From a virus: 64,000 nt of DNA. Location of the stretch: UHGV virus genome UHGV-0200554; one strand, given 5' to 3'. A program made the position numbers and the translations under genes. Under the pieces are notes generated by a model. That model saw only the letters and a list, made by a program, of their open reading frames with translations, was not told the origin of the DNA and did no database searches. Positions 31,739 to 52,983 of the stretch are shown piece after piece (position 1 is the stretch's first letter; every line of letters starts with the position of its first letter).

Positions 31739-32059
31739 TTTTAGAATTATAAAAGTTTTAGATGACAAGGGGAAATCTGTAATAGATTTTCCCTTATTTA
31801 TCAGATATTTGCAGATATTTGAAAATCATTAGAAACTTAGGTAATTAGGAGCGTACGAAAATGGATTTTTTAAAAGCATAAGCAATCATTTAGCAAATTA
31901 GCCAAATAGATTTTAGCCTATTGCTATTGTGTATGCATGTATTTGCATATGCCTTGCACATATCCCCACACACCTCTTCCCACATTCCCACACAGTTCTC
32001 GGTTGACCCGCCAATCTCCCCTCCACAACTCTCCCAGTAATTTCCTTAAGTACTCGATC

Positions 32060-32160
32060 TGTTTTTCAAAATCGAAATCGGATTCTGAAAATCTCGACAG
32101 CTTTTCTCCTCGGTTCTCGATAGGTTTTTTATTTTCGATTTTGGATTCTGGATCTCGGTC
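32060..32160. repeat. inverted repeats (AAAATCGAAAT / ATTTCGATTTT) in non-coding leader
   Basis: AAAATCGAAATCGGATTCTG and TTTTCGATTTTGGATTCTGG copies about 60 bp apart. Confidence 0.45.
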
Positions 32161-32316
32161 TGGTTCTGGCTAGGCCTGCGCCTGAGGAACGAAAGCACTT
32201 TTTTATTTTTGAAAGTGGATTTTGAATTTCTATATAGAAAAAATTTACCCCCTACCATTTTTGGTAGATAGTCACGGTACGTAATTAGCCTGCTAACTAA
32301 ATTTTAGATAGTTTCA

Positions 32317-32500
32317 TGAGTGATTATCACCGTTACTATAAATTGCCGTAACTATAAATCACCGTGCGTTACTATTTTAATTTCACCATGCAACTATAAA
32401 TCACGGGCCGTTATTATTTATATAGAAAACTATTACTAACCGTGCGTTATTACCTCAATTTGCTTAGGTTACTATTAATCACCGTAAGTAACTATTTTTT
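32317..32500. repeat. iteron-like array (CACCGT...ACTAT(A/T)AAT units, about 8 copies)
   Basis: Repeated ATCACCGT and (T/A)ACTATAAAT-like units at irregular spacing; non-coding. Confidence 0.5.
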
Positions 32501-32859
32501 AAATGATAATCATTCTCAAAATATATTGCGTGCATCCCCGGTGATTGTCTCCCGGCCCCTGGTGCCCCGGCTTGATTATATAATAACAGATCCGGCCCCC
32601 ATGTCAACAGCTTTTTTAGAAAAATATTAGTTACAACATCCTGGCGCCACCTGGCAGGGCCATCATGACCATGATCCGGTCCGGCGCTTGCGCCCTGGTC
32701 CATCCTCCGCACATTAGTTACAGCATTCCAACGACCGATCCCCGATAGTCTGCAACCTGGCGGGGCCGCCTGGTCCACTGGACCGCCTCCCCTGGTCCGG
32801 TGGGGAGTCCGGCTTGCAATTCAAAATGTGATCTGTGTCAACCTTTCACCATGTAGCTA

Positions 32860-32888
32860 TTGATCAGGTTACGGCCTAGTGTATTCTA
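32860..32888 (+). promoter_or_regulatory. promoter-like element (TTGATC-17-ATTCTA) with conserved GTATTCTATAG(G/C)TGAA start region
   Basis: Paralogous to element at 38496; followed by purine-rich leader. Confidence 0.4.
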
Positions 32889-32955
32889 TAGGTGAAGGGA
32901 AACAAAGGGGAAACGGAAAGCAAAACACCAGGCCGCAAGGCAGGAGGAAAATAAA

Positions 32956-33351: not shown

Positions 33352-33380
33352 TTGACACCAGAAAGAAATAAAGTATTATA
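33352..33380 (+). promoter_or_regulatory. sigma70-like promoter with A-tract UP element
   Basis: AAAAAATTAGTTGACA, 17-bp spacer, ATTATA; conserved GAAAGCAGTA downstream. Confidence 0.55.
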
Positions 33381-33428
33381 GATAGTGAAAGCAGTACACA
33401 AGGTTAACAAAATATAAGGAGTAACATC

Positions 33429-33830
33429 ATGAGCGCTTTTAACACTGATTTCGATTTCTCTGGTCTGGAAGAAGTTCGCGATCTTCGTAACTGCCGCCGC
33501 GAAAACGGTTTTTATAAATCTCTGGACCTGGTGGCACTGGACCACAAAATGGACCTGGAAGAAGTAGCAACGATTCGTTTCTACCAGTCACCGCGCGGTA
33601 ACACTGTTTACTGTGTAGTATGGGTACATGAAGCAGGGCACGAATTTTATGCCACTGCTGGCGGGAAAGCTGGTGGCTATGGTTACGATAAAGAGGAGGC
33701 CGCATTACGGGAAGCTATCGAGGCGATGGGTGTAAAAGCTGGCGATTATGCTCACCCTGAAAAATTTTTAATCCAGCTTGCTCGCTACTTCGGATATGAA
33801 AAAGCTAAAGTGATTGAAGCACACGCATAA
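33429..33830 (+). CDS. hypothetical protein
   Basis: ORF track; AAGGAG RBS; CGY-biased Arg codons. Confidence 0.55.
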   Translation: MSAFNTDFDFSGLEEVRDLRNCRRENGFYKSLDLVALDHKMDLEEVATIRFYQSPRGNTVYCVVWVHEAGHEFYATAGGKAGGYGYDKEEAALREAIEAMGVKAGDYAHPEKFLIQLARYFGYEKAKVIEAHA

Positions 33831-33842
33831 GCTGCCTTTTAG

Positions 33843-33863
33843 ATGGCCCCCTGGTGGGGCCAT
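33843..33863 (+). repeat. intergenic palindromic element (TTTTAGATGGCC...GGCCAT family)
   Basis: ATGGCCCC-CTGGT-GGGGCCAT hairpin preceded by GCCTTTTAG and followed by TGATAAAG. Confidence 0.5.
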
Positions 33864-33907
33864 TGATAAAGGTAACTTGGGGCAACAATAACCGAGAGAA
33901 AGAAAAT

Positions 33908-34342
33908 ATGAAACGTTTACCACGCTGGATCCGCTTTATTAATAAACTTGCCGCAGATGAAAAAATCCAGGCTATGCATAAAGATAACCGCGAACGCCGT
34001 GCTGCCTTACGAGATTATCGCCGCATGTTGGCAAAGTTAGCCAATAAAAATGGCGTTCTTAAACCGTTCCGCAAAGTGATCCACCTGGTCGCTATGGGAG
34101 CGCCTAAGGTGGCAAACGTTCCAAACGTCCATAAGATTGATGACCGCGACGTTGTAAGAGATATTGATAAAGATTTTTCTCCGAAGGCCATCAATCAGCG
34201 GATCAACAGCTGCAAAAATAAGAAAGATCTTGATAATTTGTTAGATAGCCTCGACGCTTTAGGGTGTGATTATGATTTCTTAGATGACAAGATTAATAAA
34301 AAATACCGCGAATTGGCTGGTTATCGCGTCAACCGGATTTAA
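33908..34342 (+). CDS. hypothetical basic protein
   Basis: ORF track trimmed to ATG 33908. Confidence 0.5.
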   Translation: MKRLPRWIRFINKLAADEKIQAMHKDNRERRAALRDYRRMLAKLANKNGVLKPFRKVIHLVAMGAPKVANVPNVHKIDDRDVVRDIDKDFSPKAINQRINSCKNKKDLDNLLDSLDALGCDYDFLDDKINKKYRELAGYRVNRI

Positions 34343-34629
34343 CATATCAGAATAGTTGGCCCTGGTGGATCCGATCCGTGCACGGTCCAGGGTATGCCCG
34401 AAAACCTCCCCCATTACGCCGCTACGCCTGTTTTGAAGGTGTGGCGGTGTAGTTGCACCTCTTTGCAAAACACCTCGCCATAATACTTATTTGATGCCTT
34501 ATTTTCGATACGCTCAAATAATGACCAATCAATCGCCCCCACCATGATTTTTTTCTTGCAATCCCCCAATGTATGAATACAATAACAATTGAAGGCAGTA
34601 TTAACAAAAACACAAGAAGGGGAAACAAA

Positions 34630-34800
34630 ATGGATAAAATCTATTACGTTGTTTATCGCGGCCTTAATGTTGCCTGGTACGACAATTTGGCTGAGGCAAT
34701 GGAAGAGGCGCACGACCGTTACGACCTGGGGCGTAACCGCCTTGAAGTGGTGGATAGCGACGGCGTGATCTATTGGTGTAGTGAGGATCTGGAATACTGA
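34630..34800 (+). CDS. small hypothetical protein (56 aa)
   Basis: ORF track 34573..34800 trimmed to ATG 34630 (AAGGGGAAAC RBS). Confidence 0.45.
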   Translation: MDKIYYVVYRGLNVAWYDNLAEAMEEAHDRYDLGRNRLEVVDSDGVIYWCSEDLEY

Positions 34801-34811
34801 AAAAAAAATAG

Positions 34812-34840
34812 TTGACACGACCGTTTGAAAGTGTAGTATA
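34812..34840 (+). promoter_or_regulatory. sigma70-like promoter with A-tract UP element
   Basis: AAAAAAAATAGTTGACA, 17-bp spacer, AGTATA. Confidence 0.5.
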
Positions 34841-34895
34841 TAAACCGAAGGGGAAAGAAATTTCCCAGAGGTAAAAAACAAAGAGGATAAAAATC

Positions 34896-35171
34896 ATGGC
34901 TATCATCGAAAAAGTAAACGTTCCAGCCACTTATAATAAAGGTTATAACGGTTGGAAAAATTACAATCAGTGGAACGTTGCACTGTGGATCAATAACGAC
35001 GAAAGTTTATACTTCTTTGCCCTGGGCTTGATTAATGAGTGTGGCAATAAAGACGCGGCAGCTGATTTGATGGTTTACCGCTTGAAAGAAGAGGGGATCA
35101 CTCATACGCCTGATGGGGTGCCTTACAATAAAACTAACATCCGCGCCGCTATGGTCGGAATGCCGCACTGA
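34896..35171 (+). CDS. hypothetical protein
   Basis: ORF track; RBS GAGGAT. Confidence 0.5.
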   Translation: MAIIEKVNVPATYNKGYNGWKNYNQWNVALWINNDESLYFFALGLINECGNKDAAADLMVYRLKEEGITHTPDGVPYNKTNIRAAMVGMPH

Positions 35172-35247
35172 TAGCCGCCTTACCCTGGGGCCGTGGCAGC
35201 GCCCCATGAATAAGGTTACTACCCCCACAATAACAGGAGGTAACATT

Positions 35248-35358
35248 ATGAACATTATCGCGGCAATCATTGTAGGCTATGCCCTCTTTTTGCTGGGCTT
35301 GCACCTGGCGGCAGTTATCAAAGGCCTGATCGATTTCTTTAAAAAAGATGAAAAATAG
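35248..35358 (+). CDS. small membrane peptide (36 aa)
   Basis: ORF track 35113..35358 trimmed to ATG 35248 with AGGAGG RBS; hydrophobic. Confidence 0.4.
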   Translation: MNIIAAIIVGYALFLLGLHLAAVIKGLIDFFKKDEK

Positions 35359-35360
35359 TG

Positions 35361-35389
35361 TTGACAGGTGAGAGAAAATAAATATACTT
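35361..35389 (+). promoter_or_regulatory. sigma70-like promoter
   Basis: TTGACA 35361-35366, 17-bp spacer, ATACTT; GAAAGCAGTA downstream. Confidence 0.5.
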
Positions 35390-35438
35390 AACCATGAAAG
35401 CAGTAAACGAGATTAATAAAACACAGGAGAAAAAGATC

Positions 35439-35849
35439 ATGAAAACTACTTTCCGTAATGCAAATGGTTTAACTGCATTCGCTTTAGCTTGTGGATATGT
35501 TCAAATGGTAGAGGGGCGGGATCGTGAAATGGTGGATCTGTTTAAAGCCCACGGTTGCTACCATGTTCGCGCTTTTAATGCTGATGGCGAGCGGCAAGCA
35601 TGGTTTAGTGTGCCATCTTTAACTGATGCCCGTCGCCATTGGAAAGAACTGGTAAAACTGATTTTCGGTGCACGCATTGCACAAGTGAAACGCTGCAAAC
35701 GTTACGAAGTGCGCCACGTCCTGGACCTGAGAGGGGAGGCAGTTTACCAGGTTATCTATCGCTACGATGGGGAGTCTCGCCACGTCGGCTACTGTGAAAA
35801 CGTGGACGCGGCATGGATGATTGCACACCGCGACTATGTAAGCCTATAG
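35439..35849 (+). CDS. hypothetical protein
   Basis: ORF track trimmed to ATG 35439 (CAGGAGAAAAAG RBS). Confidence 0.5.
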   Translation: MKTTFRNANGLTAFALACGYVQMVEGRDREMVDLFKAHGCYHVRAFNADGERQAWFSVPSLTDARRHWKELVKLIFGARIAQVKRCKRYEVRHVLDLRGEAVYQVIYRYDGESRHVGYCENVDAAWMIAHRDYVSL

Positions 35850-35872
35850 GTTATTTTTCGGTGGCCTGGGTA

Positions 35873-35901
35873 TTGACACCGGGCCATCTATAAAGTAACC
35901 T
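35873..35901 (+). promoter_or_regulatory. promoter-like element with -35 inside palindromic loop
   Basis: GGTGGCC-TGGGTATTGACACC-GGGCCATC; TTGACA 35873-35878. Confidence 0.35.
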
Positions 35902-35933
35902 AAAGATCCACACAACGAAGGGGGGGAACAATC

Positions 35934-36026
35934 ATGAAAAACTATTCTCACTATTTGATCCGTCGTGATGTTATGATTATGGCCCTGGGCTACCTGGTTA
36001 TGTTTGCTTTTCGTGTAATGCTGTAA
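35934..36026 (+). CDS. small hydrophobic peptide (30 aa)
   Basis: Not in ORF track; RBS GAAGGGGGGGAA; hand translated. Confidence 0.35.
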   Translation: MKNYSHYLIRRDVMIMALGYLVMFAFRVML

Positions 36027-36044
36027 AATAAATTAAAAAATTAG

Positions 36045-36073
36045 TTGACACAGTAGCAAAAATAAGTAAACTT
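36045..36073 (+). promoter_or_regulatory. sigma70-like promoter with A-tract UP element
   Basis: AAAAAATTAGTTGACA; weak -10; GAAAGAAGTAATTAG downstream. Confidence 0.45.
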
Positions 36074-36117
36074 AAAACTGAAAGAAGTAATTAGTAAACC
36101 ACAAAGAGGAAAACATC

Positions 36118-36477
36118 ATGAAACGCATCAATAAGGCTATGGCTAACGCAATCCGTGCTTATGTAGTTGACAGCTTAAACTTTGACGACATGGAACACGA
36201 CAACGACGTTGAGGAACTGAAAGCACGCTTTGAAGCTGAGCATTTTGACGGCTATTATATCCGTCGCTTTAACGGCAACCGTGTAAAAGCAATGGCCGAC
36301 TGGTTAGCAGGACTGCCGAGCGGTGTAGACATTGACTTCTGTAATGATGACATTTTAAACCGCTTGCGTGAGTTCGGAATCATTGACGAAAAAACTAAAG
36401 AAGACACTAAAGATCGCTACATTGACGAATGGTTTGAACTGATGGCGCGGTTTTATGTGGAACTAGCATACAAATAA
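36118..36477 (+). CDS. hypothetical protein
   Basis: ORF track; AGAGGAAAACATCATG module. Confidence 0.55.
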   Translation: MKRINKAMANAIRAYVVDSLNFDDMEHDNDVEELKARFEAEHFDGYYIRRFNGNRVKAMADWLAGLPSGVDIDFCNDDILNRLREFGIIDEKTKEDTKDRYIDEWFELMARFYVELAYK

Positions 36478-36516
36478 AATAGCTTGCTTTTAGATGGCCT
36501 CGAAAAAAAAAAATAG

Positions 36517-36545
36517 TTGACACGGGGCCATCGATAAAGTAAACT
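36517..36545 (+). promoter_or_regulatory. promoter-like element with -35 inside TTTTAGATGGCC...GGCCATC palindrome
   Basis: GATGGCC-TCGAAAAAAAAAAATAGTTGACACG-GGGCCATC; TTGACA 36517-36522. Confidence 0.4.
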
Positions 36546-36583
36546 AACACACAGTAAGAAGTAACAACAAAGGAGAAAACATT

Positions 36584-36922
36584 ATGAACGCTAACATTGA
36601 ACTGATTGCACGTCGTGCCGCCCTGGTTGCAGCTATCGAACAATTGAACAATAAAATTGAAAACTTTGAAATTGATCCAGATGACTACGAAAACGACTAC
36701 GATGATTTACTAGACGAAGGCGGTGCGGTAGTGGTAGGCGGTTGCGAATTTCTCCCGTCTAGAATCCTCCGCGAACTGGATCCGATTGCTTATCGTTGCG
36801 GCCTGAATGATTATATAGACAACATTGATGTAAGCGATGACGCAAACTATTGTGATTTGTGTGACGATCTGGCTGACCTTGAGGCAGAACTAGGGGAAGT
36901 CGAGGAAGCGCTACGTAACTAA
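36584..36922 (+). CDS. highly acidic small protein (DNA-mimic candidate)
   Basis: ORF track; 112 aa very rich in Asp/Glu (DPDDYENDYDDLLDE..., DVSDDANYCDLCDDLADLEAELGEVEE). Confidence 0.55.
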   Translation: MNANIELIARRAALVAAIEQLNNKIENFEIDPDDYENDYDDLLDEGGAVVVGGCEFLPSRILRELDPIAYRCGLNDYIDNIDVSDDANYCDLCDDLADLEAELGEVEEALRN

Positions 36923-36933
36923 GTTGCCTTTTA

Positions 36934-36957
36934 GATGGCCTCCCTGGCGGGGCCATC
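36934..36957 (+). repeat. intergenic palindromic element (TTTTAGATGGCC...GGCCATC family)
   Basis: GATGGCC-TCCCTGGCGG-GGCCATC preceded by GCCTTTTA, followed by CATAAAG. Confidence 0.5.
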
Positions 36958-37001
36958 CATAAAGATAATTTAGTGTAACCACAATAAAAAGGAGTTACGC
37001 A

Positions 37002-37250
37002 ATGGCAAAATTAATTAACTTTGCAGCGGTGGACCTGGTAAAAGCTGATTGGTATTATAGCAATGGTCGCGCCGTTTGGTGGCGTGAAGGGGGTGCCGAG
37101 GGCAAAGTAAAAGCGCGTATGATTAAAGGTTACCATTTAGATCGCCCTGTAATTCGTATCAATGGGAAGCTGGTCGCTTTCATGCATATCAAAGCGGTTG
37201 ACGATATTGAAAAAATTTTGAACGTCAACTATTTTAAAATGTTAGGGTGA
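37002..37250 (+). CDS. hypothetical protein
   Basis: ORF track; AAGGAG RBS. Confidence 0.5.
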   Translation: MAKLINFAAVDLVKADWYYSNGRAVWWREGGAEGKVKARMIKGYHLDRPVIRINGKLVAFMHIKAVDDIEKILNVNYFKMLG

Positions 37251-37339
37251 CATGCCAGGCGGGGGCCGTTAGTCCGGCCCCCTCTATCCAACCAGGAGGA
37301 GGTGACACTATGCCCAGTTAACAACAGAGAGGAAAATAT

Positions 37340-37678
37340 ATGGACCTCATGACGTGCATACTCGCATTTATTGCAATAGGTGTAGTCTGGAACAAAGTAA
37401 AAAACCAGAGTTATTACGCCAGATGCCAGGCTTTTCGGGTGAATCCGTGGGATATTGATCCGGGTGCTGATTATGTTATCAAGTACCAGGACCGACACGG
37501 CAAACAATATGTAACGCCGTCGCCGATACCGGCCTATTGCTTGCTGGAATACACAGACAAGATAAAACAGGCAGGTTTTTTAATTGTTGACCTGTGGGGC
37601 CGCCACGGTGACGCGAAAAAATTTATTAAAGCAGTGGCTGCAAATATTGCAGCACAAGAAAACGACGATGAAGAGTAA
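37340..37678 (+). CDS. hypothetical protein with N-terminal hydrophobic segment
   Basis: ORF track; GAGAGGAAAATATATG. Confidence 0.5.
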   Translation: MDLMTCILAFIAIGVVWNKVKNQSYYARCQAFRVNPWDIDPGADYVIKYQDRHGKQYVTPSPIPAYCLLEYTDKIKQAGFLIVDLWGRHGDAKKFIKAVAANIAAQENDDEE

Positions 37679-37692
37679 CAGGAGCGCCGATT

Positions 37693-37914
37693 ATGAACAT
37701 GGTAAACTTTGAAAAAATTACTAAGCGCAATCATTTATCTGACGAACTACCGGAACGCCGCCAGCGTAACAACAAGCTGAATAAACCGCGTCGATTTGGT
37801 AAACTGTGGCGCAACTATTACGACCGTAATTTACGCCGCCTGTTACTTGAACGTGAACGCCAACAAATGAGATACGCAGCACGGCGGGAACGGATGAAAG
37901 CAGACGAAATTTAA
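37693..37914 (+). CDS. Arg-rich basic small protein
   Basis: ORF track; RRQRNNKLNKPRR...RRERMK. Confidence 0.5.
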   Translation: MNMVNFEKITKRNHLSDELPERRQRNNKLNKPRRFGKLWRNYYDRNLRRLLLERERQQMRYAARRERMKADEI

Positions 37915-37930
37915 CCGATAGGCCCCCAGG

Positions 37931-37954
37931 TGGGGGCCTTTCTTCATTTGTAAC
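37931..37954 (+). terminator. rho-independent terminator
   Basis: GGCCCCCA-GG-TGGGGGCC hairpin then TTTCTT. Confidence 0.6.
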
Positions 37955-38154
37955 ATAGCGCAATCAATTTTAAGGCCCTTAAAACGCCCTACAACGCAAA
38001 GAAGCCTAAAGGTGAACAATTGCATTACCCGCCCCCAATTAGTAATTTGTGATCAAGATCTCACAAAAATTAATAGGTAAAAACCTTATTTACTTCTTAT
38101 AGGATCTGCATACCATTTTAATTGAAAGAAGAAACACAGCAGGAGGAAAATAAA

Positions 38155-38364
38155 ATGGTCTACTGTGATTATGCCAATGATGCACTGGGCCGCTATGAGA
38201 AAGGCCGTTATTATGACCTGAGCGAAATAATTGATAACGAGGATTATTACATCGATAAGAATGATGATCATCTAGTCGTTATCCATCGCGTAGTCGATCC
38301 GATGTGCTTCGTGGACGTTAGCCCGATTGTGGCACGCTTTGAAATTATGGTATTGGAGGCTTGA
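38155..38364 (+). CDS. hypothetical acidic protein
   Basis: ORF track trimmed to ATG 38155 (CAGGAGGAAAATAAAATG). Confidence 0.5.
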   Translation: MVYCDYANDALGRYEKGRYYDLSEIIDNEDYYIDKNDDHLVVIHRVVDPMCFVDVSPIVARFEIMVLEA

Positions 38365-38366
38365 TT

Positions 38367-38468
38367 ATGTTACTTGAAATGCTGATGAATCCGATTATTT
38401 CTATGGGCCTGATCTTTGTAGTTGTCTGCCTGGTTGTTGGTTTTATCTTGAGCAATATGCGGAAGTAA
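38367..38468 (+). CDS. small membrane peptide (33 aa)
   Basis: Not in ORF track; hydrophobic; TGATTATG coupling; hand translated. Confidence 0.35.
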   Translation: MLLEMLMNPIISMGLIFVVVCLVVGFILSNMRK

Positions 38469-38495
38469 AAATTTTTAAAAAGCTATGAAAAAGTG

Positions 38496-38526
38496 TTGAC
38501 ACGGCCCCCCGGTTTGGTATTCTATA
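38496..38526 (+). promoter_or_regulatory. sigma70-like promoter with conserved GTATTCTATAGCTGAA start region
   Basis: TTGACA 38496-38501, 17-bp spacer, ATTCTA; paralogous to 32860 element; followed by about 250-nt purine-rich leader. Confidence 0.5.
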
Positions 38527-38777
38527 GCTGAAAGGAAAAGAAAGGGAACAAGAAGGAAAGTTCCGGGAGCGGGAAAAGAAGGGTAAGGGAAAAGCCTTGA
38601 AGCATAGCTAACCGAAGGACCGAGGGAGCCGGGAGCGGCCCTAAAAGATACTCAAAGAAGTAAAAAGAAGTTGACAAGGTAACACAAAGCAGTAAAATAA
38701 AGTTGAAAGGGAAGGATGCAGGGAGCAACAAGGACCGGATAAACCGGGGGGAGCTGAAAGAAAACGAGGAAAATAAA

Positions 38778-38864
38778 ATGAAAGACTACTACAAAGCAAA
38801 CGAATATGAAAGGGTAGCAGATTTCATTAAAGAAATGTTAAAAGGTCTGAATAATAAAAAATGA
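38778..38864 (+). CDS. tiny ORF (28 aa)
   Basis: GAGGAAAATAAAATG module; hand translated; coding status uncertain. Confidence 0.3.
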   Translation: MKDYYKANEYERVADFIKEMLKGLNNKK

Positions 38865-38872
38865 GGTGGGGT

Positions 38873-38986
38873 ATGAAAAACAAGCAAGAAAGGCCCGAAG
38901 ATGACAAATTTACATGGCGTGAGCTTTTAAACATCTGGTACATCATTTACGGGCAACATTATAAACACAGAGGAGGGAGGTTATAA
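38873..38986 (+). CDS. tiny ORF (37 aa)
   Basis: RBS GAGGTGGGG; followed by GGAGGGAGG-TTATAAA-CCTCCCACC hairpin; coding status uncertain. Confidence 0.3.
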   Translation: MKNKQERPEDDKFTWRELLNIWYIIYGQHYKHRGGRL

Positions 38987-39033
38987 ACCTCCCACCACAA
39001 AGAAAGAAACAACAACCAAGCGAGGAAAATAAA

Positions 39034-39261
39034 ATGAGCAACGTTATCAAGTTCCCCATGAATCGTGTAAAACCATCTAAAGGTGTGGTTAATTTCGATA
39101 ATAAGGTTTACCGCATGGCCTGGATCGTTAGAAACAGCGACAATAAGGGCGATATCTGGGTAGAGGCATTCAGGCGGGAGGTTGATGCTATTTTTTCAAG
39201 AAGTGTAAGGGGAGGCCGGATCATTAGAGGATTTTTCAAAGCGGCACCGGAAGAGGTTTAA
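39034..39261 (+). CDS. hypothetical protein
   Basis: ORF track; GCGAGGAAAATAAAATG module. Confidence 0.5.
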   Translation: MSNVIKFPMNRVKPSKGVVNFDNKVYRMAWIVRNSDNKGDIWVEAFRREVDAIFSRSVRGGRIIRGFFKAAPEEV

Positions 39262-39266
39262 AAAGG

Positions 39267-39300
39267 TTGACAAATCATAAAAAACAAGTAGACTGATAAT
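39267..39300 (+). promoter_or_regulatory. sigma70-like promoter (spacer ambiguous)
   Basis: AAAAAGGTTGACA; GATAAT -10 candidate; CGAAAGCAGTA downstream. Confidence 0.4.
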
Positions 39301-39336
39301 CGAAAGCAGTAAACAATTTAAAAGGAGAACATAATC

Positions 39337-39531
39337 ATGAAACACATCAACATCGTAAACCTGAAAAAAGTTTGCAAAATTGCAATTTTTGTGGAAGGTG
39401 TCGAGGCTTATCGTTGCGACTACGAAGATTATAAAGATGCGTTAGCTTTCCTCCTGGACGTGGCACACCACAACAATCTAGACTATGAAGCCATCGAGGC
39501 AGCCGAAAAAGTTATGGCAATTGCCGCATGA
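39337..39531 (+). CDS. hypothetical protein
   Basis: ORF track; AAGGAGAACATAATCATG. Confidence 0.5.
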   Translation: MKHINIVNLKKVCKIAIFVEGVEAYRCDYEDYKDALAFLLDVAHHNNLDYEAIEAAEKVMAIAA

Positions 39532-39542
39532 GTTAGCTTTTA

Positions 39543-39569
39543 GATGGTCCACGATGCGAAAGTGGATCA
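39543..39569 (+). repeat. intergenic palindromic element (TTTTAGATGG...CATCAATAAAG family)
   Basis: ATGGTCCAC-GATGCGAAA-GTGGATCAT preceded by GCTTTTAG. Confidence 0.45.
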
Positions 39570-39612
39570 TCAATAAAGAAAACTCAACCACGAAGCAAGA
39601 AGGAGAAACATC

Positions 39613-39843
39613 ATGGACCTTATGACAGCTGTTGCAACATACGACTATAAAAACTTTTTTGATGTAGTCATGATTAAAAAACCAGCTAACGCCCGGATGC
39701 CTGCAAATGGTTACGGTAAAAAATTACCGACTAACTGGATGATCAATTTCGAGGGCCGTATGCGCCGCGTCTATGTTGATATCTGTGGCAATTCTGGACA
39801 CAGGTACATCATGGTTAAAGGCCGTAAATTTACTATCATGTAA
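39613..39843 (+). CDS. hypothetical protein
   Basis: ORF track; AGGAGAAACATCATG. Confidence 0.5.
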   Translation: MDLMTAVATYDYKNFFDVVMIKKPANARMPANGYGKKLPTNWMINFEGRMRRVYVDICGNSGHRYIMVKGRKFTIM

Positions 39844-39904
39844 CACGATTTCAACCAGGGCCGGAAGTCCGGCCCTATCATCAACCAACAAAGGGGATCA
39901 AAAA

Positions 39905-40024
39905 ATGAAAGACAAGCCTCGACCTTGCAGCGATACAATTTACCATCTGATAGCATGGTGTGAGATCCTGGCAATTGAAGCCCTTATGGGTGTTGGCATT
40001 TACTTTATAGCGATCTATAATTAA
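39905..40024 (+). CDS. small membrane peptide (39 aa)
   Basis: ORF track 39773..40024 trimmed to ATG 39905 (AAAGGGGA RBS). Confidence 0.35.
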   Translation: MKDKPRPCSDTIYHLIAWCEILAIEALMGVGIYFIAIYN

Positions 40025-40057
40025 CGCGAAAGGAAATAGCCATGAGGAATAAAAGCA

Positions 40058-40414
40058 ATGAGAATCATCGACCTGTTAAACCGTATGCCGGACGTCAACG
40101 AGATGGCCCCCGATATGAACGAAATTGATCGAGAAGCTGCCGAAAAAGCGGCCCGTAAAATTAAATGCCGTGGGGCCGCTATCGGTGCGGTGCTTTTTGG
40201 CCTTGCTTATGCTCATATTGATTTGGTCCATAACATTTTCCACAATGCACCGATCAAAATCGTGTTAGCCTGGATTGTCTGCTACGTGTGCGGTGAGTAC
40301 ATTTACCCGGTTGCCAAAAAATTGGCCCCGTGGGCCGTCCTGGGTGCGGTGATCTATTATGTTGCGCCTGTGATTATTGCAATCGTAAAACATTACACAG
40401 CGCAACAAATGTAA
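40058..40414 (+). CDS. membrane protein
   Basis: ORF track; multiple hydrophobic helices. Confidence 0.5.
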   Translation: MRIIDLLNRMPDVNEMAPDMNEIDREAAEKAARKIKCRGAAIGAVLFGLAYAHIDLVHNIFHNAPIKIVLAWIVCYVCGEYIYPVAKKLAPWAVLGAVIYYVAPVIIAIVKHYTAQQM

Positions 40415-40425
40415 GAGATTCTAAG

Positions 40426-40449
40426 GGCCGCAAATAAGCGGCCTTTTTT
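40426..40449 (+). terminator. rho-independent terminator (GGCCGCAAATAAGCGGCC + T6)
   Basis: Perfect 6-bp stem, AAATAA loop, TTTTTT; identical hairpin recurs at 43944. Confidence 0.75.
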
Positions 40450-40753
40450 ATGGCCCCGCCTCCTGTGTTTAAAATCCTTCCTGTAAGCCCCGCCATTGAG
40501 ATTTACCCGCAAGATAAGCAAGTGTAAAGCCCCACCATTCCAGGCCGTTGCAGGCCCTGCCAGGTGCCTAAAAATCGATTTATACGCTTCCACTATTGCC
40601 AACCTTCAAAGCGATCCAGACTTAAAAGTGTTGCCCCTGCAAAATGAGAATAGTTATCATCTTATAAATTTTTCTTGCAATGTGGTCTGTTGTGTGTATA
40701 CTTATTCTTGAAAGGGGAATACCTCCCCCACCAACAACAAAGGAGTTAAAATT

Positions 40754-41035
40754 ATGTTCCCTAACCTATTCCCTGGTGCGGTTATCAATTTTGAAGCCCG
40801 TTATTTGCAAGCTGGTATGATTATCATTCGAAATGATCGCCCATTGAAATTAACTAGGGTAGAATACAATGAAGGCCAGGCCCCTGGCGAGGAAACTGTA
40901 GACTACTTCTTCATGTATGCAGATGAGGATCCAAATGATAACACTGGCGAATGGTTTAACTTCTTCCTGCCGGACGAAATGATTAAAGTGCTTTATTATC
41001 CTGGTAACCGTTATCCGCTTCATGCGCTTTTCTAA
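40754..41035 (+). CDS. hypothetical protein
   Basis: ORF track; AAGGAG RBS. Confidence 0.5.
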   Translation: MFPNLFPGAVINFEARYLQAGMIIIRNDRPLKLTRVEYNEGQAPGEETVDYFFMYADEDPNDNTGEWFNFFLPDEMIKVLYYPGNRYPLHALF

Positions 41036-41130
41036 AAAAAATCTTCATAAAGGCTTGCAATGTGCAGGCCTTTTTCCTACTATAAAGGTGAAGAAAGAAG
41101 TAAGGCCAACAGTTAGAGGAGTAACAAATT

Positions 41131-41340
41131 ATGGGCATGGGAAGAGATAAACGTAAAGCGGCGAAAGCAAGAAAAGCGGCAGCAAAGGCCGCACCTGTTA
41201 AAGCTGTACCGTACCACGTCAATATAAACAACCTGGAAGTAATGAACAATCCGGCCCCTATGGAAGAATTTAACGATGCGGATTGGAGGGCGGTAGCAAG
41301 AATGGTTATCCGGCTTGAACGCCTTGCCAGGGAAGAGTAA
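41131..41340 (+). CDS. Lys/Ala-rich basic small protein
   Basis: ORF track; AGAGGAG RBS. Confidence 0.5.
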   Translation: MGMGRDKRKAAKARKAAAKAAPVKAVPYHVNINNLEVMNNPAPMEEFNDADWRAVARMVIRLERLAREE

Positions 41341-41361
41341 AAAAGTTAGAAAAAAAAACGG

Positions 41362-41389
41362 TTGACACAGAATAGAGAAGGCCTATAAT
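41362..41389 (+). promoter_or_regulatory. sigma70-like promoter TTGACA-16-TATAAT with A-tract UP element
   Basis: AAAAAAAAACGGTTGACA; TATAAT 41384-41389; GAAAGAAGTAATTAG downstream. Confidence 0.6.
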
Positions 41390-41439
41390 TAAAGTGAAAG
41401 AAGTAATTAGAAACAACAAAATAAGAAGAGGTAAGTATC

Positions 41440-41706
41440 ATGAAAATGGTAGACGTTAAAGGCATCAAGAACGTTAAAATGCAAAAAAATACTCCCGCAA
41501 ACGTTCTTAAAAAAGCCCTGAGCATCCTAGAAGCACACAACGCAAAAACGGTGCATCCTGTTAAATTAAATTGCGGTTATGGCTATAAATACAATATTAA
41601 TAAAGACTGGAGGCTGTTAAACCGTGATGGCGAATTTAAAGATTGGTTAATTGTTGAGCACTTGGAGTATAATCGTCTGGTTGGCGTAAAAGGCGCTCAT
41701 AAATAA
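41440..41706 (+). CDS. hypothetical basic protein
   Basis: ORF track. Confidence 0.5.
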   Translation: MKMVDVKGIKNVKMQKNTPANVLKKALSILEAHNAKTVHPVKLNCGYGYKYNINKDWRLLNRDGEFKDWLIVEHLEYNRLVGVKGAHK

Positions 41707-41751
41707 CGCCAGAACATGAAAACACAGCATAAAACACTAAGAGGGAACGCC

Positions 41752-41931
41752 ATGATTAGAGAATCCCAAATACTTTACGAAAATGGCAACTACTGGATCC
41801 TTGAGGCTAAACCGGGGGTTTACCAGGTGATGGTAAAAGGTTTAACGCATTCGACTTGCGATAGCGCCTACGCAGATTTTGATCTAGCATTGGCCCGGTG
41901 TGAGTACCTGGCACGAAGAGAAAACGCATAA
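41752..41931 (+). CDS. hypothetical protein
   Basis: ORF track 41716..41931 trimmed to ATG 41752 (AGAGGGAA RBS). Confidence 0.45.
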   Translation: MIRESQILYENGNYWILEAKPGVYQVMVKGLTHSTCDSAYADFDLALARCEYLARRENA

Positions 41932-41937
41932 AAGAAA

Positions 41938-41960
41938 GGCCCCACCCAGGGGCCTTAACT
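41938..41960 (+). terminator. terminator-like hairpin
   Basis: GGCCCC-ACCCA-GGGGCC then TTAACTTT. Confidence 0.45.
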
Positions 41961-41986
41961 TTATGAAAAAAAATCTGAAAAAATAG

Positions 41987-42015
41987 TTGACACCTTGCTG
42001 GGATAGTATATTATT
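41987..42015 (+). promoter_or_regulatory. sigma70-like promoter with A-tract UP element
   Basis: GAAAAAATAGTTGACA; TATATTATT -10 region; GAAAGCAGTA downstream. Confidence 0.5.
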
Positions 42016-42057
42016 AAATTGAAAGCAGTACTAAACCACTTGAAAGAGGAAAAGATC

Positions 42058-42540
42058 ATGAAAGCGTTCAAATATGTTTTAGCGGCCCTGGCGATGGTTA
42101 TCGGTGTAAATGTGAATGCTGGCGGTTTTAGAGTCGAGGCCCCCGAGCATATCAATCCGGTTTATGTGAAAGAAATTTTAATGAATTGCGCCGGGGAAAT
42201 GGTTGCACCTGATGCGGTGTTTAATCCTGATGCACCGATCAACGTTAAAAAAGGTTGGCTGGCTAAAGCTGACAAAGAATGTAAAACATTGGTAAATAAT
42301 GTTATCGTTCACGCCCTGATTGTTGACCTGATTATCAAGAAAGGCCCTGAAAATATGAAGGGCATGGACGAAGAGGAGTTTAAAGAGTATTTCTATAACG
42401 AAGAAATGAAAGTGGAGAATTACCATTTTGATGAAAACGGTTATGAAGATGTTAAAGCTAACTTGAAAGATGTTTACAATCTTGCGCTTGAAAATCCTAA
42501 AGCCGCCCATGCTATCAAGGTGCGAATGATGGGAAAATAA
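42058..42540 (+). CDS. secreted/periplasmic protein (signal peptide)
   Basis: ATG 42058 with AGAGGAAAAG RBS; N-terminus MKAFKYVLAALAMVIGVNVNA-GG resembles a Sec signal peptide with AXA-like site. Confidence 0.55.
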   Translation: MKAFKYVLAALAMVIGVNVNAGGFRVEAPEHINPVYVKEILMNCAGEMVAPDAVFNPDAPINVKKGWLAKADKECKTLVNNVIVHALIVDLIIKKGPENMKGMDEEEFKEYFYNEEMKVENYHFDENGYEDVKANLKDVYNLALENPKAAHAIKVRMMGK

Positions 42541-42544
42541 AAGT

Positions 42545-42573
42545 ATTGACAAGCTGCCAGGTTGTTGTAAGAT
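42545..42573 (+). promoter_or_regulatory. sigma70-like promoter
   Basis: TTGACA 42545-42550; weak -10 TAAGAT. Confidence 0.4.
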
Positions 42574-43726: not shown

Positions 43727-43921
43727 ATGGCACTTAAAAAATTAACTGAAAAAACTCGTTGGGATATGATCGACGGGGAAGTCTATATTTTCGCCCGTAA
43801 ACCTGGCGATCAAAAATGGGTAAAAGCGTTCACTTGTCACCCTGCTGTTATTGACCTCATTAAAAGTAAAGGCCTACGTGAAGCAGTGGCACGTAGTCTA
43901 TTAATCCCTTGCAAAGAATAA
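43727..43921 (+). CDS. hypothetical protein
   Basis: ORF track 43637..43921 trimmed to ATG 43727 (AAGAGGAG RBS). Confidence 0.5.
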   Translation: MALKKLTEKTRWDMIDGEVYIFARKPGDQKWVKAFTCHPAVIDLIKSKGLREAVARSLLIPCKE

Positions 43922-43943
43922 TATAACTGACGAAATAATAAGA

Positions 43944-43966
43944 GGCCGCAAATAAGCGGCCTTTTT
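43944..43966 (+). terminator. rho-independent terminator (GGCCGCAAATAAGCGGCC + T5), duplicate of 40426
   Basis: Identical 18-nt hairpin followed by TTTTT; last element of the small-gene array. Confidence 0.75.
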
Positions 43967-44630
43967 GTTGTCTGTAGTATAGTGAATCCGGTATTCAAAA
44001 CAGCGGATCATTCCGCGAACGCTATGCGTGATGTGTGCATAAAATAAAATGCCTATAAATTAACCACACCACAAAAAAGCTGTATGTGCATACATAGTTT
44101 TTAAGTTTTTTCAGTTTTCAGCTGTCAAATGTGGGGCATTTTGTGAAGTATCTCACACTTTTCGGCTGATGCACATTTTATATAGCTATGTCAACAACTA
44201 TAAATCTTTATAAAACAGTAAGTTACAAAGTCCATTTTTTGAAAAATCGGGTATAACTATAGGCGCGAAATTCTATTTTTCACGTAGCGTCACGATAAGA
44301 TGTATCTGATAGGTATGTTTTAATTATGCAATATTAATGCATAACCAACATGTGATAAATATTCTCAACAACCCGGCAGATGTATTAAATATGGTGACTA
44401 TTCCACCCCACATTATTTCAGACGGCAACTATTCCGATGTGTGATTAATATACTTTCAGGCGGTGATTATTCTGTATCTCAATAATCTATATAATATAAT
44501 ATTAGTAATATAATTAGATTATGAGATACAAGAAAACATCTAAAATAGTAAAATTACAATTAATGAAAATATATAAATTGCATAAAATAAAATAAGACAA
44601 ATAACAATTTGCGAATGCAATGATCACAAT

Positions 44631-45051
44631 ATGCAACGATAACATGGCGCGACCGGAGGGAGCGACATAATAACGCTGAGTGACAATAACACCCCCGTGT
44701 TATTATCCAGCATTATTATCTCGCTAATTTATGATTATCTCATAAATTAACATGTAATAATCCTCAGCGTTATTATGTCCTCCAATAACAATAAAAATTG
44801 TTATGGTAACGCTGAGTTATTACTATGTTAATAAAAGGGCATAAAGCCCGGTACTATGTACCATTAAATAATCTAAAACGATTACGTTTTCTCAGCGTTA
44901 TTGTGTCAAATGTTATGATAACAGTATATAATTATCTTGCTAACTTTCAGTATACATATTCCGCGTAGCGTCATGTGGAGCGTGTAGTAAACCTGTAGCA
45001 AGATAAGAATAACGCTGAGGTATTGTACCGTATGCAACGATAACATGGCGC
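44631..45051. repeat. 20-bp direct repeat ATGCAACGATAACATGGCGC (2 copies: 44631-44650, 45032-45051)
   Basis: Exact copies about 400 bp apart in AT-rich non-coding DNA. Confidence 0.7.
44669..45019. repeat. 12-bp motif AATAACGCTGAG, 5 copies in both orientations
   Basis: Copies at 44669, 44763 (inverted), 44807, 44891 (inverted), 45008. Confidence 0.7.
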
Positions 45052-45572: not shown

Positions 45573-45578
45573 CTGAGC

Positions 45579-45618
45579 TGTGGATAAGTCTGTGGATAAC
45601 CCTGCCTCCTGTGGATAA
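45579..45618. promoter_or_regulatory. cluster of three DnaA boxes (TGTGGATAA = complement of TTATCCACA)
   Basis: Perfect 9-mers at 45579-45587, 45591-45599, 45610-45618, same orientation. Confidence 0.65.
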
Positions 45619-52974: not shown

Positions 52975-52983
52975 AACCCACCT

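Follow-up and report, generated by a model that had tools for sequence, protein, structure and literature searches.

A putative cis-acting control region conserved in the non-coding DNA of rV5-like phages

Described systems closest to the locus

Iteron replicons such as lambda ori, P1 (oriR and incA), F, and R6K carry tandem direct repeats of about 20 bp in an AT-rich setting, and an iteron origin is recognized by at least three tandem direct repeats of about 17 to 22 bp. We analyzed a 64,000-nucleotide stretch of DNA (the window) from a virulent 137-kb relative of Vequintavirus, and found a non-coding region with this kind of layout, containing nine tandem units of 16 to 25 bp. The likeness extends to a second, smaller cluster of units elsewhere, located beside DnaA boxes, to the rapid lineage-specific turnover of the repeat type, and to a predicted promoter reading toward the array, comparable to the transcriptional activation of lambda ori. 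However, no cognate initiator gene was recognized here and no DnaA box lies in the region, the unit spacing is irregular (16 to 25 bp), and 13 kb of a virulent 137-kb genome separate one cluster from the other.

The T4 origins ori(uvsY) and ori(34) and the ColE1 RNA II origin, in which an unwinding element lies downstream of a promoter and an R-loop serves as primer, share with our locus an ORF-less promoter with an AT-rich segment within about 60 nt. The predicted RNA leader of the phage is also G-rich with four G-runs, which would favor a persistent RNA-DNA hybrid. The differences are that the promoter here is of the host sigma-70 early type, whereas the T4 origins use a MotA-dependent middle promoter, that the leader is conserved in sequence and not just in composition, and that a repressor-type operator lies between the promoter and the array.

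In T5, a 1.2-kb untranslated region located 9.2 to 10.4 kb from the end contains repeats, palindromes, and inverted repeats; it is more conserved than the neighboring ORFs, and its repeats are shared with a second region nearer the end. This Repeat Region 3, a candidate injection stop signal, resembles our locus in comprising about 1.2 kb of conserved untranslated DNA about 10 kb from the end, in its dense direct and inverted repeats and palindromes, in having repeats common with a region nearer the end, and in bordering a block of small early genes. The two differ in gene orientation and have no sequence similarity, and the region here is not inside a long terminal repeat; neither an 8- to 10-kb terminal repeat nor paired DnaA boxes within conserved inverted repeats, the marks of the T5 type, were found. 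For T7, Dunn and Studier are said to have described in 1983 arrays of short repeats that flank the terminal repeat. Here, too, short imperfect direct repeats form non-coding arrays that accompany a short direct terminal repeat and fixed ends, but the T7 arrays abut the repeat and the larger array here is 13 kb inside the genome.

To our knowledge, neither a replication origin nor an early regulatory circuit has been mapped in rV5-like or phi92-like phages. Targeted searches of a literature collection returned no paper on this region, on an rV5-like origin, or on Fur boxes in rV5-like phages, and the function of the control region is not previously described.

Extent, conservation, and repeat modules

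The gene-free gap spans 31739 to 32955; it starts at the stop of an upstream 108-aa gene and ends just before an ATG (32956) behind AGGAGG. It is thus slightly longer than the approximately 1.1 kb without ORFs reported by the first-pass annotation, and it contains no conserved ORF, as 1-nt indels in L003 and L005, two close relatives, interrupt the ORFs of more than 60 aa. We rejected as genes the gap ORFs of 78, 70, and 99 aa and the 92-aa ORF annotated in Murica, all broken or frame-shifted between relatives, as well as the 16- to 18-aa ORFs behind the leftward promoter (PL), whose frame is not kept between relatives. Several of the genome annotations examined place doubtful "hypothetical protein" ORFs over the locus, and an extra gene is inserted in this area in L003. 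ARAGORN found no tRNA or tmRNA in the window and 17 homologues, and Rfam searches at gathering and E-value thresholds found no RNA family in the window and 8 homologous loci; no tRNA or known sRNA, which the first-pass annotation had named as a competing explanation of the conservation, accounts for the region. The same annotation had called the whole interval a leader. This holds for the last 70 nt or so, in which a promoter (32860 to 32887) and a purine-rich leader serve the downstream genes, and does not hold for the remainder; the annotation also lacked the conserved elements, namely three repeats spaced 63 to 78 bp apart, the GC element, the leftward promoter, and the ryhB-type box (Table 1).

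Table 1. Features of the non-coding region, in window coordinates
Feature	Position	Strand	Description
Intrinsic terminator of the upstream operon	31769..31799	+	hairpin GGGGAAATCT-GTAAT-AGATTTTCCC, then TTATTT
Two GATATTTG units	31802..31821	+	CAGATATTTG twice; TRF period 10, 100% match
C-rich, G-poor tract	31955..32045	+	CCCACA three times; G-rich on the predicted leftward transcript
Three long repeats	32050..32224	+	GTACTCGATCTGTTTTTC...GGATTCTG; family D2; start-to-start 63 and 74 bp
Perfect 14-bp palindrome and hairpin	32227..32266		TTTCTATATAGAAA (at 32227) and CTACCATTTTTGGTAG; seen in the sequence
Two degenerate ancestral units	32271..32310	+	CACGGTACGTAATTAGCC / TGCTAACTAAATTTT; also in Vequintavirus; SYGMH1 and Murica alignment 74-77%
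Nine tandem iteron-like units of ~20 bp	32326..32505	+	~30% GC; units 16-25 bp
Fur-operator-like box	32499..32521	-	TGATAATCATTCTCA at 32504-32518
GC element	32536..32571		CCCCGGTGATTGTCTCCCGGCCCCTGGTGCCCCGGC (GGTGATTGTCTCC); conserved by blastn; 5' leader of the predicted leftward transcript
Putative leftward sigma-70 promoter PL	32580..32607	-	TTGACA, 16-nt spacer with TG, TATTAT
Two tandem GC-rich units of ~106 bp	32626..32815	+	ATTAGTTACARCAT ... ACCTGGCRGGGCC ... CCTGGTCC; families D14, D15
Rightward promoter of the small-gene island	32860..32955	+	TTGATC, 16 nt, TATTCT; purine-rich leader, RBS

A homologous gap with its modules in the same order is present in five Vequintavirinae genera (all those examined) and in Phapecoctavirus of the Stephanstirmvirinae, which points to an ancient conservation of the region. 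Taken together, the comparisons identify it as a putative conserved non-coding cis-acting control region of the rV5-like phages of these two subfamilies. Scans of the genome collection with short patterns gave mostly chance matches, the only close relatives being L003, L005, L107, and L026.

The region and a second non-coding region (43920 to 46430) flank an 11-kb island of small genes. They share three motif classes, which are the 20-bp unit (22 of 24 positions identical), the palindromic box, and GATATTTG pairs, so that the earlier suggestion that this region and the DnaA-box region bracket the island has gained support. By homology to phage Gotham, the second region is predicted to hold the physical genome end, near 45979, with a short terminal repeat (terminal repeats measured in related phages are 459 and 514 bp). 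This would place the control region 9 to 13 kb inside the end, where the terminal island of early genes has its inner edge. Three perfect DnaA boxes (45579 to 45618) lie in the second region with 2 to 3 iteron units beside them, and no DnaA box (TTATCCACA, at most one mismatch) was found within 31740 to 32955.

At the left edge, the terminator folds into a clean hairpin on either strand, and in the alignment this hairpin (31769 to 31793) shows compensatory stem changes in L005, from GGGGAAA/TTTTCCC to GGAGAAA/TTTCTCC; it probably also stops the leftward non-coding transcript. The GATATTTG motif occurs 7 times in the window, and six of these copies, all on the plus strand, are in this region or near the predicted genome end; by reading of the sequences, POP17, PBES02, KPP-1, Hena1, and PVP-SE1 have 2 to 4 similar copies at the equivalent place. 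The CCCACA-rich tract of the first-pass annotation was recovered with 42 C and 7 G in 91 nt (46% C, 8% G; GC skew, -0.69), and its composition recurs with divergent sequence in L003, L005, SYGMH1, and Murica.

The three long repeats are the most conserved core of the region. Their copy number is the same in every lineage, exactly three copies, spaced 63 to 78 bp apart, being present in PBES02, PVP-SE1, Hena1, KPP-1, and SYGMH1, and the window is 97 to 100% identical to L003 and L005 over 32060 to 32360 (with one bin, 32120 to 32179, at 92%), versus about 90% for the flanking DNA. Copies within a genome are more alike than copies from different genera, and the evolution of these repeats therefore looks concerted. 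A conserved RNA structure in them was considered and rejected on reading the sequences, as pairing is not kept between lineages. The adjoining palindrome and hairpin (32227 to 32266) are invariant in L003 and L005 except for one loop change, and they are not conserved in Vequintavirus. The paired inverted repeats noticed earlier are real and mostly short, comprising the terminator hairpin, an 11-nt perfect pair at 32067/32133, TTTCTATATAGAAA, and the GAGTGATTATCA/TGATAATCATTC pair that flanks the iteron array.

The array itself follows the consensus CACCGT(N0-4)GTWACTATWAAT. About 8 CACCGT-type units had been noted, and we count nine in tandem plus the 2 degenerate ones. Their enrichment is supported by a TRF score of 59, a repeat family (D1) of 4 copies of 31 nt at 71 to 84%, and a self-alignment of 90 nt at a 78-nt offset (E=1.5e-7). 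When the 64-kb window was scanned for the same units, the core ACTATWWAT was confined to the two non-coding regions, with 4 copies in the array region and 2 in the second region, all on the plus strand. An array of T4-type late promoters was rejected, since TATAAATA shows no enrichment and ACTATWWAT is restricted to these two regions. The GC content of the array is 30 to 32% versus 43% for the window, and by inspection 44480 to 44620 looks far more AT-rich. L003 has the array at 82 to 88% identity, whereas in L005 it has undergone rearrangement and part of it is inverted, and in Vequintavirus it has shrunk to 1 to 2 units; other genera have no iteron array at this position, where palindromic boxes stand instead. 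The 20-bp array is a fast-evolving expansion specific to the lineage of the window, and not the conserved core.

The GC-rich segment had been described as dense in CCWGG-like sites, and this was borne out by 7 CCTGG in 32530 to 32810, whereas 0.43 were expected from composition-matched shuffles and none of 2000 shuffles reached 7; likewise, ACCTGGCRGGGC had 5 matches against 0.23 expected. This density reflects the repetition of ACCTGGCRGGGCC and CCTGGTCC in the two tandem units, and no evidence of a Dcm-related feature was found in the segment. L005 has a single unit, with an HNH_2 endonuclease gene inserted just past it. Other genera have a conserved block at the position homologous to this segment. 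Further right, TATTCTATAG and the purine-rich leader of the island promoter recur at 38517 to 38559, behind another island promoter.

The putative leftward promoter, its leader, and the Fur-operator-like box

PL matches the sigma-70 consensus at 11 of 12 positions and is backed by an A-rich upstream tract (32608 to 32625). It belongs to the same class as 11 rightward early promoters of the island (A-rich tract, TTGACA, 16-bp spacer, TAnnnT) and is the only minus-strand promoter of this class within the plus-oriented block; its predicted start is near 32573, and no ORF lies downstream. By comparing 25 homologous sequences, we found that the hexamers are kept while the spacers vary in most of them and in all lineages, with 9 to 11 of 12 consensus matches, falling to 7 or 8 in five copies. 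These observations suggest that PL is a putative early-class promoter for host RNA polymerase that faces against all neighboring genes. Its leader, the GC element, was found by blastn in all Vequintavirinae genera examined and in Phapecoctavirus at 74 to 89% identity, in unannotated DNA for most records and with no conserved reading frame. A conserved RNA structure in the PL leader was rejected, as, by reading of the sequences, it is not kept between lineages.

Downstream of PL, the box sequence TGATAATCATTCTCA matches the Fur 7-1-7 consensus at 14 of 15 positions, and the window holds 5 Fur-type boxes versus 0.4 in shuffles. Gel shifts have confirmed the E. coli ryhB operator as a strong Fur site, with 25.2 bits (PMC2189734). 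The box is identical to it at 16 of 17 positions in the window and at 21 to 22 of 23 in other genera (TGCAAATGAGAATGATT(A/C)T(C/T)ATT in the phages, TGCAAATGAGAATGATTATTATT in ryhB), a similarity about 10 SD above shuffles. The half-site asymmetry is equal in both, and each has a -10-like hexamer within its downstream half, TATTAT in ryhB and TATCAT in the phage, where the minus strand of the box reads TGAGAATGATTATCATT. The box is a near copy of the host operator and a candidate binding site for Fur. However, no RyhB-like RNA follows the phage box, which lies about 55 to 75 nt downstream of another strong promoter. The -35 belonging to TATCAT is weak, and the hexamer becomes TCTCAT in PVP-SE1, Hena1, and PBES02, looking inactive there.

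One box is present in this region and more are found beside the terminal repeat, while other genera carry 2 to 4 Fur-like boxes in phase at the array position, typically 29 bp apart; this spacing is unlike that of E. coli Fur site clusters, which overlap at 3 or 6 bp (PMC2189734). The half-sites degenerate toward a consensus with no covariation, which fits protein sites and not RNA hairpins, and we therefore rejected the latter. We also rejected a rightward promoter that Fur would control through a box within the spacer, since the supposed -10, CAGAAT, is not constant at -11, a critical position (CTGAAT, CGGAAT).

Candidate functions of the region

The reading that we prefer, with a probability of roughly 0.35, is that Fur-gated non-coding transcription into a protein-binding array makes the locus a transcription-activated origin or an initiator-control locus. 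It starts from what is directly supported, namely the conservation, the non-coding status, the repeat statistics, the conserved promoter consensus, the similarity to a Fur operator, and the motifs shared with the terminal region. Transcription would begin at PL (32607 to 32580), running leftward against the neighboring genes, and its RNA would open with the conserved G-rich leader formed by the GC element. It would then pass the ryhB-type operator (32499 to 32521), the AT-rich protein-binding repeats (nine iterons here, 2 to 4 boxes in other genera), the three long repeats, and the tract whose RNA is rich in G, and would end at the bidirectional terminator (31769 to 31799) after about 800 nt without an ORF. 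Fur on its operator would gate this transcription, which on entering the array would open or remodel a nucleoprotein complex built by a sequence-specific DNA-binding protein, the same protein binding also beside the terminal repeat. In the initiator-control version, the large array and the 2 to 3 units at the three terminal DnaA boxes would correspond to P1 incA and oriR. Against this reading, lineages keep the Fur-like box but have different types of array, which implies that there are two distinct binding proteins. What we infer from these features is that PL is active, that Fur binds, that a protein occupies the array, and that the locus has a part in replication. A replication-associated switch of GC skew was rejected, as no inflection occurs at the region inside the uniformly plus-oriented block; skew in phages follows transcription. 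Among the ten flanking proteins, no adjoining initiator or DNA-binding gene was found, with no Pfam match and only PHROGs families of unknown function. The second non-coding region, with its DnaA boxes and a much more AT-rich stretch, is at least as good an origin candidate.

Several other functions have to be weighed against a transcription-activated origin or initiator control. Shared proteins may bridge this region and the terminal-repeat region, looping the 11-kb island to insulate or later silence it, with the leftward promoter and the terminator keeping transcription from crossing the boundary. The three motif classes are common only to the two flanking regions, the island has 11 promoters of a single class, the terminator of the upstream operon is followed by a C-rich, G-poor tract suited to Rho loading, and Gotham and KPP-1 likewise have the region at the island's inner edge. 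However, motif sharing by itself does not demonstrate looping, the binding protein was not recognized, the terminal early region on the right lacks a corresponding inner boundary, and the ORF-less promoter and leader, the most widely conserved sequence, would be left unexplained, so that we regard a boundary function as doubtful. It is unlikely that the locus encodes non-coding RNA, either a leftward transcript of about 800 nt (iron-regulated like RyhB, or a sponge of repeat units) or a structured rightward GC-rich RNA or both, even though a conserved promoter, a conserved leader, and a terminator enclose no ORF. The GC-rich block of other genera has a 12-bp hairpin with one double compensatory change, several one-sided changes, and four wobble pairs valid only on the plus strand, but this block is not clearly present in the lineage of the window, and no rightward promoter for such an RNA was found (position -11 of the candidate -10 is variable). 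The folding z-scores of the two strands (-2.1 for minus, -3.0 for plus) resemble each other, as expected of DNA-level inverted repeats; moreover, the Rfam family and tRNA searches had no match, there is no conserved pairing in the three long repeats or the boxes, and the window and PBES02 do not have the leader hairpin in common. Applied to the whole module, RNAalifold returned only implausible long-range pairs.

The boxes and short repeats might instead be sites for terminase or an accessory protein, or the relic of a former end, such as the inner limit of a long terminal repeat that covered the early island in an ancestor, as in T5 or SPO1. Boxes lie 12 to 45 bp from the terminal-repeat boundary of Gotham and flank that of KPP-1, and this closeness to the cut site, set against an origin, could indicate a packaging protein; about 30 to 45 bp separate the terminal box of the window from the predicted end, iterons and GATATTTG occur at the end as well, and the distance of 9 to 13 kb resembles the long repeats of T5-like phages. 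We nevertheless consider a packaging role quite unlikely, as the measured repeats of the group are short, a relic is not expected to stay conserved in two subfamilies, and a terminase site would give no reason for a far-above-chance match to the host Fur operator. A pause in DNA entry, in which the island would enter first, halt at the repeat-rich region, and resume after early proteins are made, is suggested by the similar geometry of the T5 untranslated repeat region. It seems very improbable, since that region lies inside a 10-kb terminal repeat with paired DnaA boxes, whereas here the repeat comprises about 460 bp, the DnaA boxes stand at the genome end, and the region maps about 11 to 13 kb inside that end. 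Two-step entry was never reported for these phages. The analogy is further weakened by the T5 first-step genes (1 to 6022), which are mostly rightward, whereas the island genes all point toward the end. A functionless spacer of decayed genes, mobile-element scars, and chance repeats would fit the tolerance of insertions (the HNH endonuclease in L005, the extra gene in L003) and the variable copy number of the GC-rich unit. This explanation is already hard to hold, as module order is kept in two subfamilies, the core at 32060 to 32360 is better conserved than its flanks, promoter hexamers are conserved while spacers are free, and motif enrichments are far above shuffles.

The box also permits a wider proposal, which we put forward as speculative and rather doubtful, that large virulent enterobacterial phages from two subfamilies use a copied ryhB Fur operator to couple a conserved cis-acting function of their genomes to the iron status of the host. 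Fur would either gate the ORF-less leftward unit, controlling replication initiation or the island, or be titrated by replicating phage DNA, which would derepress the host Fur regulon.

The rV5-like and phi92-like phages are among the commonest therapy candidates against E. coli, Salmonella, and Klebsiella. For these phages, the present analysis provides a locus of about 1.2 kb whose architecture is kept in two subfamilies, gives exact coordinates for a candidate promoter, Fur operator, and protein-binding array, and links the locus to the physical genome end by shared motifs. If Fur binding is true, it would provide a rare example of host iron regulation being sensed or manipulated by a strictly lytic phage, and if the locus is an origin, engineering and copy-number studies would be enabled in these phages; if neither reading is true, the locus would still be a conserved landmark of their genomes.

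A gene-free region with a conserved core

The window phage is, by its sequence, an undescribed relative of the rV5-like myophages, since its DNA polymerase is 74% identical to Vequintavirus phage polymerases and at the nucleotide level it has only short matches to deposited phages. All genes from 3.2 to 43.9 kb lie on the plus strand and those right of ~46.9 kb on the minus strand. About 16 records named 'Campylobacter phage' (MG0656xx, 135-141 kb) equal E. coli phages in their match to the Vequintavirus control region and DNA polymerase, and their host label looks doubtful.

The first-pass annotation had described about 1.1 kb without ORFs, and we found that every ORF longer than 60 aa in the gap is broken by single-base indels in L003 and L005, two relatives of ~90% identity. 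A tRNA or sRNA behind the region was also looked for; the gap contains no tRNA and has no Rfam match at either of two thresholds. The repeated CACCGT-type units proved real, two degenerate copies preceding nine tandem ones, and the array aligns with itself over 90 nt at an offset of 78 nt (E=1.5e-7). All six copies of their core ACTATWWAT in the 64 kb are on the plus strand, four in the control region and two in the second non-coding region. The reported CCCACA-rich tract was recovered, and the GC-rich segment said to be dense in CCWGG-like sites carries seven CCTGG against 0.43 expected, a count attained in 0 of 2000 shuffles. The paired inverted repeats exist, mostly as short ones. The observation was confirmed, and its interpretation was supported in part.

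Features of the window and their positions
Feature	Position	Details
DNA polymerase gene	18080-20866	
Control region	31739-32955	gene-free gap
Terminator hairpin	31769-31793	compensatory changes in L005; folds on both strands
C-rich tract	31955-32045	42 C and 7 G in 91 nt
Long repeats	32050-32224	three; spacing 63 and 74 bp
Stable stretch	32060-32360	
Ancestral units	32271-32310	two, degenerate
Iterons	32326-32505	nine tandem copies, 16-25 bp
Fur-like box	32504-32518	TGATAATCATTCTCA
PL, -10	32585-32580	minus strand, TATTAT
PL, -35	32607-32602	minus strand, TTGACA
Island promoter array	33352-42546	plus strand, 11 promoters
GC-rich motif ACCTGGCRGGGC	36942-36953, 40554-40565	intergenic, in island
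Island promoter aligning with PL	38488-38526	
Second non-coding region	43920-46430	
Very AT-rich stretch	44480-44620	
ATAACGCTGAG/CAGCGTTATTAT units	44670-45020	many
GGGGAAGTATA	45218-45265	four, tandem
Predicted direct terminal repeat	~45520-45979	by homology to Gotham
Perfect DnaA boxes	45579-45618	three
Predicted physical end	~45979	
Right-hand promoter array	48070-54456	minus strand

The stable stretch, which spans the three long repeats, the palindromes, both ancestral units and iterons one and two, is 97-100% identical among the window, L003 and L005 except for one 60-nt bin (32120-32179, 92%), and its flanks are ~90% identical. Beyond it, the iteron array keeps 82-88% identity in L003, and L005 has its units rearranged, some of them inverted; the two ancestral units are all that Vequintavirus phages have, and other genera lack the units altogether. 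Because it varies between close relatives and is missing from other genera, the array noticed at first is a young expansion within an old region. At the borders of the control region both relatives have an inserted gene: in L003 an extra 215-aa gene without a Pfam match (1314-1961) separates the upstream gene from the terminator, and in L005 an HNH_2 endonuclease gene (1390-2079; Pfam E=5.5e-8) sits on the GC-rich right side, with duplicated GGACCGCCGCGCCCTGG flanking it.

A homologous, equally gene-poor gap of ~1 kb, ~70% identical to the control region, is present in 117 Vequintavirus records, where it is unannotated or filled with doubtful small ORFs. Using the Vequintavirus copy as query, we recovered one piece of 60-130 nt (74-89% identity) in five other groups: Certrevirus (POP17, PBES02), Mydovirus (KPP-1), Henunavirus (Hena1), Seunavirus (PVP-SE1) and Phapecoctavirus (the Stephanstirmvirinae phage phiWec179). 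Read from the sequences, these loci have a gap of ~0.7-1.2 kb between rightward genes and an identical module order: after the upstream gene come GATATTTG units, AAATCGAAAT/ATGGATTTT units, exactly three long repeats spaced by 63-78 bp, arrayed palindromic boxes, a GC element (GGTGATTGTCTCC), a leftward promoter, a GC-rich conserved block, and a strong rightward promoter serving the next operon.

In the other genera, RNAalifold predicts a 12-bp hairpin in the GC-rich block, with four wobble pairs valid on the plus strand only, one double compensatory change and several one-sided changes. The surrounding ~110-nt segment (GACGAACTACCGGCGATCCACCTT...GTTAGCCCCGCCTTTTCGCCGTGGGGTGGCG) is conserved in all five groups (loci L128-L133 plus 11 IMG/VR loci; alignment A3, columns 53-86), has no Rfam or tRNA match, and may be an undescribed structured RNA. 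The window lineage is without a clear counterpart of this block, having two tandem ~106-bp units there (one in L005). These observations moderately support an RNA element in other members of the family, but not in the window.

The Fur-like box and the leftward promoter

The box is one of five window matches to TGAGAATNATTCTCA with at most two mismatches, against 0.4 in shuffles, and two of the other four fall in the second non-coding region. Matches outside the control region were noted at 21789, 40645 and 44353, the one at 40645 (TGAGAATAGTTATCA) being within the island of small early genes. In homologues, 35 distinct boxes give the consensus (G/A)AATGA(G/T)AATcATTCTCATTT, and adjacent boxes are typically spaced by 29 bp. 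Among 5426 E. coli genomes, the best match to box plus flank was the yhhX-yhhY intergenic region, which on inspection is the ryhB promoter. The phage minus strand TGCAAATGAGAATGATT(A/C)T(C/T)ATT is identical to ryhB TGCAAATGAGAATGATTATTATT at 21-22 of 23 positions, and the window box at 16 of 17, ~10 SD above shuffles. The ryhB Fur site has been confirmed by gel shift and, at 25.2 bits, is among the strongest predicted E. coli Fur clusters (PMC2189734). Since the box is near-identical to this confirmed operator, including its asymmetry (upstream half GAGAAT, downstream half ATTATC in the phage), Fur binding is likely.

Where ryhB has TATTAT, the downstream half of the phage box holds a -10-like TATCAT (window, Vequintavirus, KPP-1, POP17) or TCTCAT (PVP-SE1, Hena1, PBES02). 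A ryhB-type leftward promoter at the box is possible but weakly supported, because there is no good -35; a rightward promoter with the box within its spacer was rejected. On the plus strand of the GC element in PVP-SE1 and locus L270, opposite to the operator-like box, TTGTCTCGCGAT shares 12 identical nt with the E. coli ryhB -10/start region, a match that could be fortuitous or a further remnant of descent from the ryhB promoter.

The leftward promoter PL has 11 of the 12 sigma-70 consensus bases and a 16-nt spacer with TG at its end. Among the near-consensus promoters surveyed, 11 rightward ones in the island (33.3-42.5 kb) form a single class (A-rich upstream tract, TTGACAc, 16-bp spacer); PL belongs to it, as its sole minus-strand member inside the plus-strand block. 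Of 25 homologous sequences, drawn from all lineages, most keep the PL hexamers with the spacer free to vary, five copies being weak (7-8/12). Another leftward promoter lies farther to the right in Vequintavirus and in several genera. No ORF lies behind PL, as the short ones that can be drawn shift frame between lineages; the predicted transcript would start near 32573 and run ~800 nt to the terminator hairpin. Promoters of this class, mostly with 16-bp spacers, also form an array right of the predicted genome end, and both arrays face that end. Additionally, the GC-rich motif ACCTGGCRGGGC, which recurs outside the control region at two intergenic sites of the island, resembles the GC-rich spacer of several promoters in the phage group on the other strand (GGCCCCGCCAGGT).

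The second non-coding region and the genome end

The Vequintavirus phage Gotham has fixed ends with direct terminal repeats of 459 bp (PMC7471380), and its record begins at the genome end; the KPP-1 repeat is 514 bp. Gotham position 1 maps, in reverse orientation, into the second non-coding region, which is therefore predicted to hold a short direct terminal repeat together with the physical end. This end, toward which the island genes are oriented, lies ~13 kb from the control region in the window, ~11 kb in Gotham and ~8.5 kb in KPP-1. The second non-coding region is the larger of the two and also carries repeated TTCCGCGTAGCGTCATG as well as iteron, box and GATATTTG sequences; of the seven window copies of GATATTTG, six fall in the two regions. 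Within the predicted repeat are the DnaA boxes, two to three iteron units that match a control-region unit at 22/24 positions, and a box ~30-45 bp from the end. Gotham has boxes at terminal-repeat positions 12 and 30, and KPP-1 on either side of the repeat boundary. Through these elements the control and terminal regions have binding-site vocabularies in common in three lineages.

Readings of the control region

We tentatively favor, at a probability of about 0.35, a transcription-activated origin with a P1 oriR/incA-like pair of clusters. Early in infection, host RNA polymerase would start at PL, Fur bound 55-75 nt downstream would gate leftward transcription, and transcription would run into the AT-rich array occupied by a sequence-specific protein, which may also bind next to the terminal repeat. 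This succession of promoter, leader G-rich in RNA and AT-rich repeat array is reminiscent of the transcription-activated origins of lambda, T4 ori(uvsY) and ColE1, and the two clusters of the window phage, a small one with DnaA boxes at the genome end and a large one in the control region, recall P1 oriR and incA. However, GC skew has no inflection at the control region, no initiator gene is recognisable, the control region contains no DnaA boxes, and the terminal region is as good an origin candidate; all of these count against an origin.

The island lies between the two non-coding regions with their common sites, and a boundary or looping element for it is a doubtful alternative. The predicted PL transcript would suit a noncoding RNA gene, which we consider unlikely given a gap without Rfam matches. 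The sites around the terminal repeats bear on a packaging-related site, or a relic of a long terminal repeat, which is an improbable reading. T5 has a similar architecture, namely an untranslated, repeat-rich 1.2-kb region, 9.2-10.4 kb from the end, whose conservation exceeds that of the ORFs beside it and some of whose repeats recur in a second region (Davison, bioRxiv 10.1101/866236). But the T5 region sits in a long terminal repeat and has paired DnaA boxes, defining features that the control region lacks, and T5 gene orientation differs from that of the window, so a T5-like entry pause site is very unlikely. That so conserved a region is junk is scarcely credible.

No description of this region was found in the literature searched. 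It is a conserved control region, and what surprises most in it is the box that nearly duplicates a host Fur operator.
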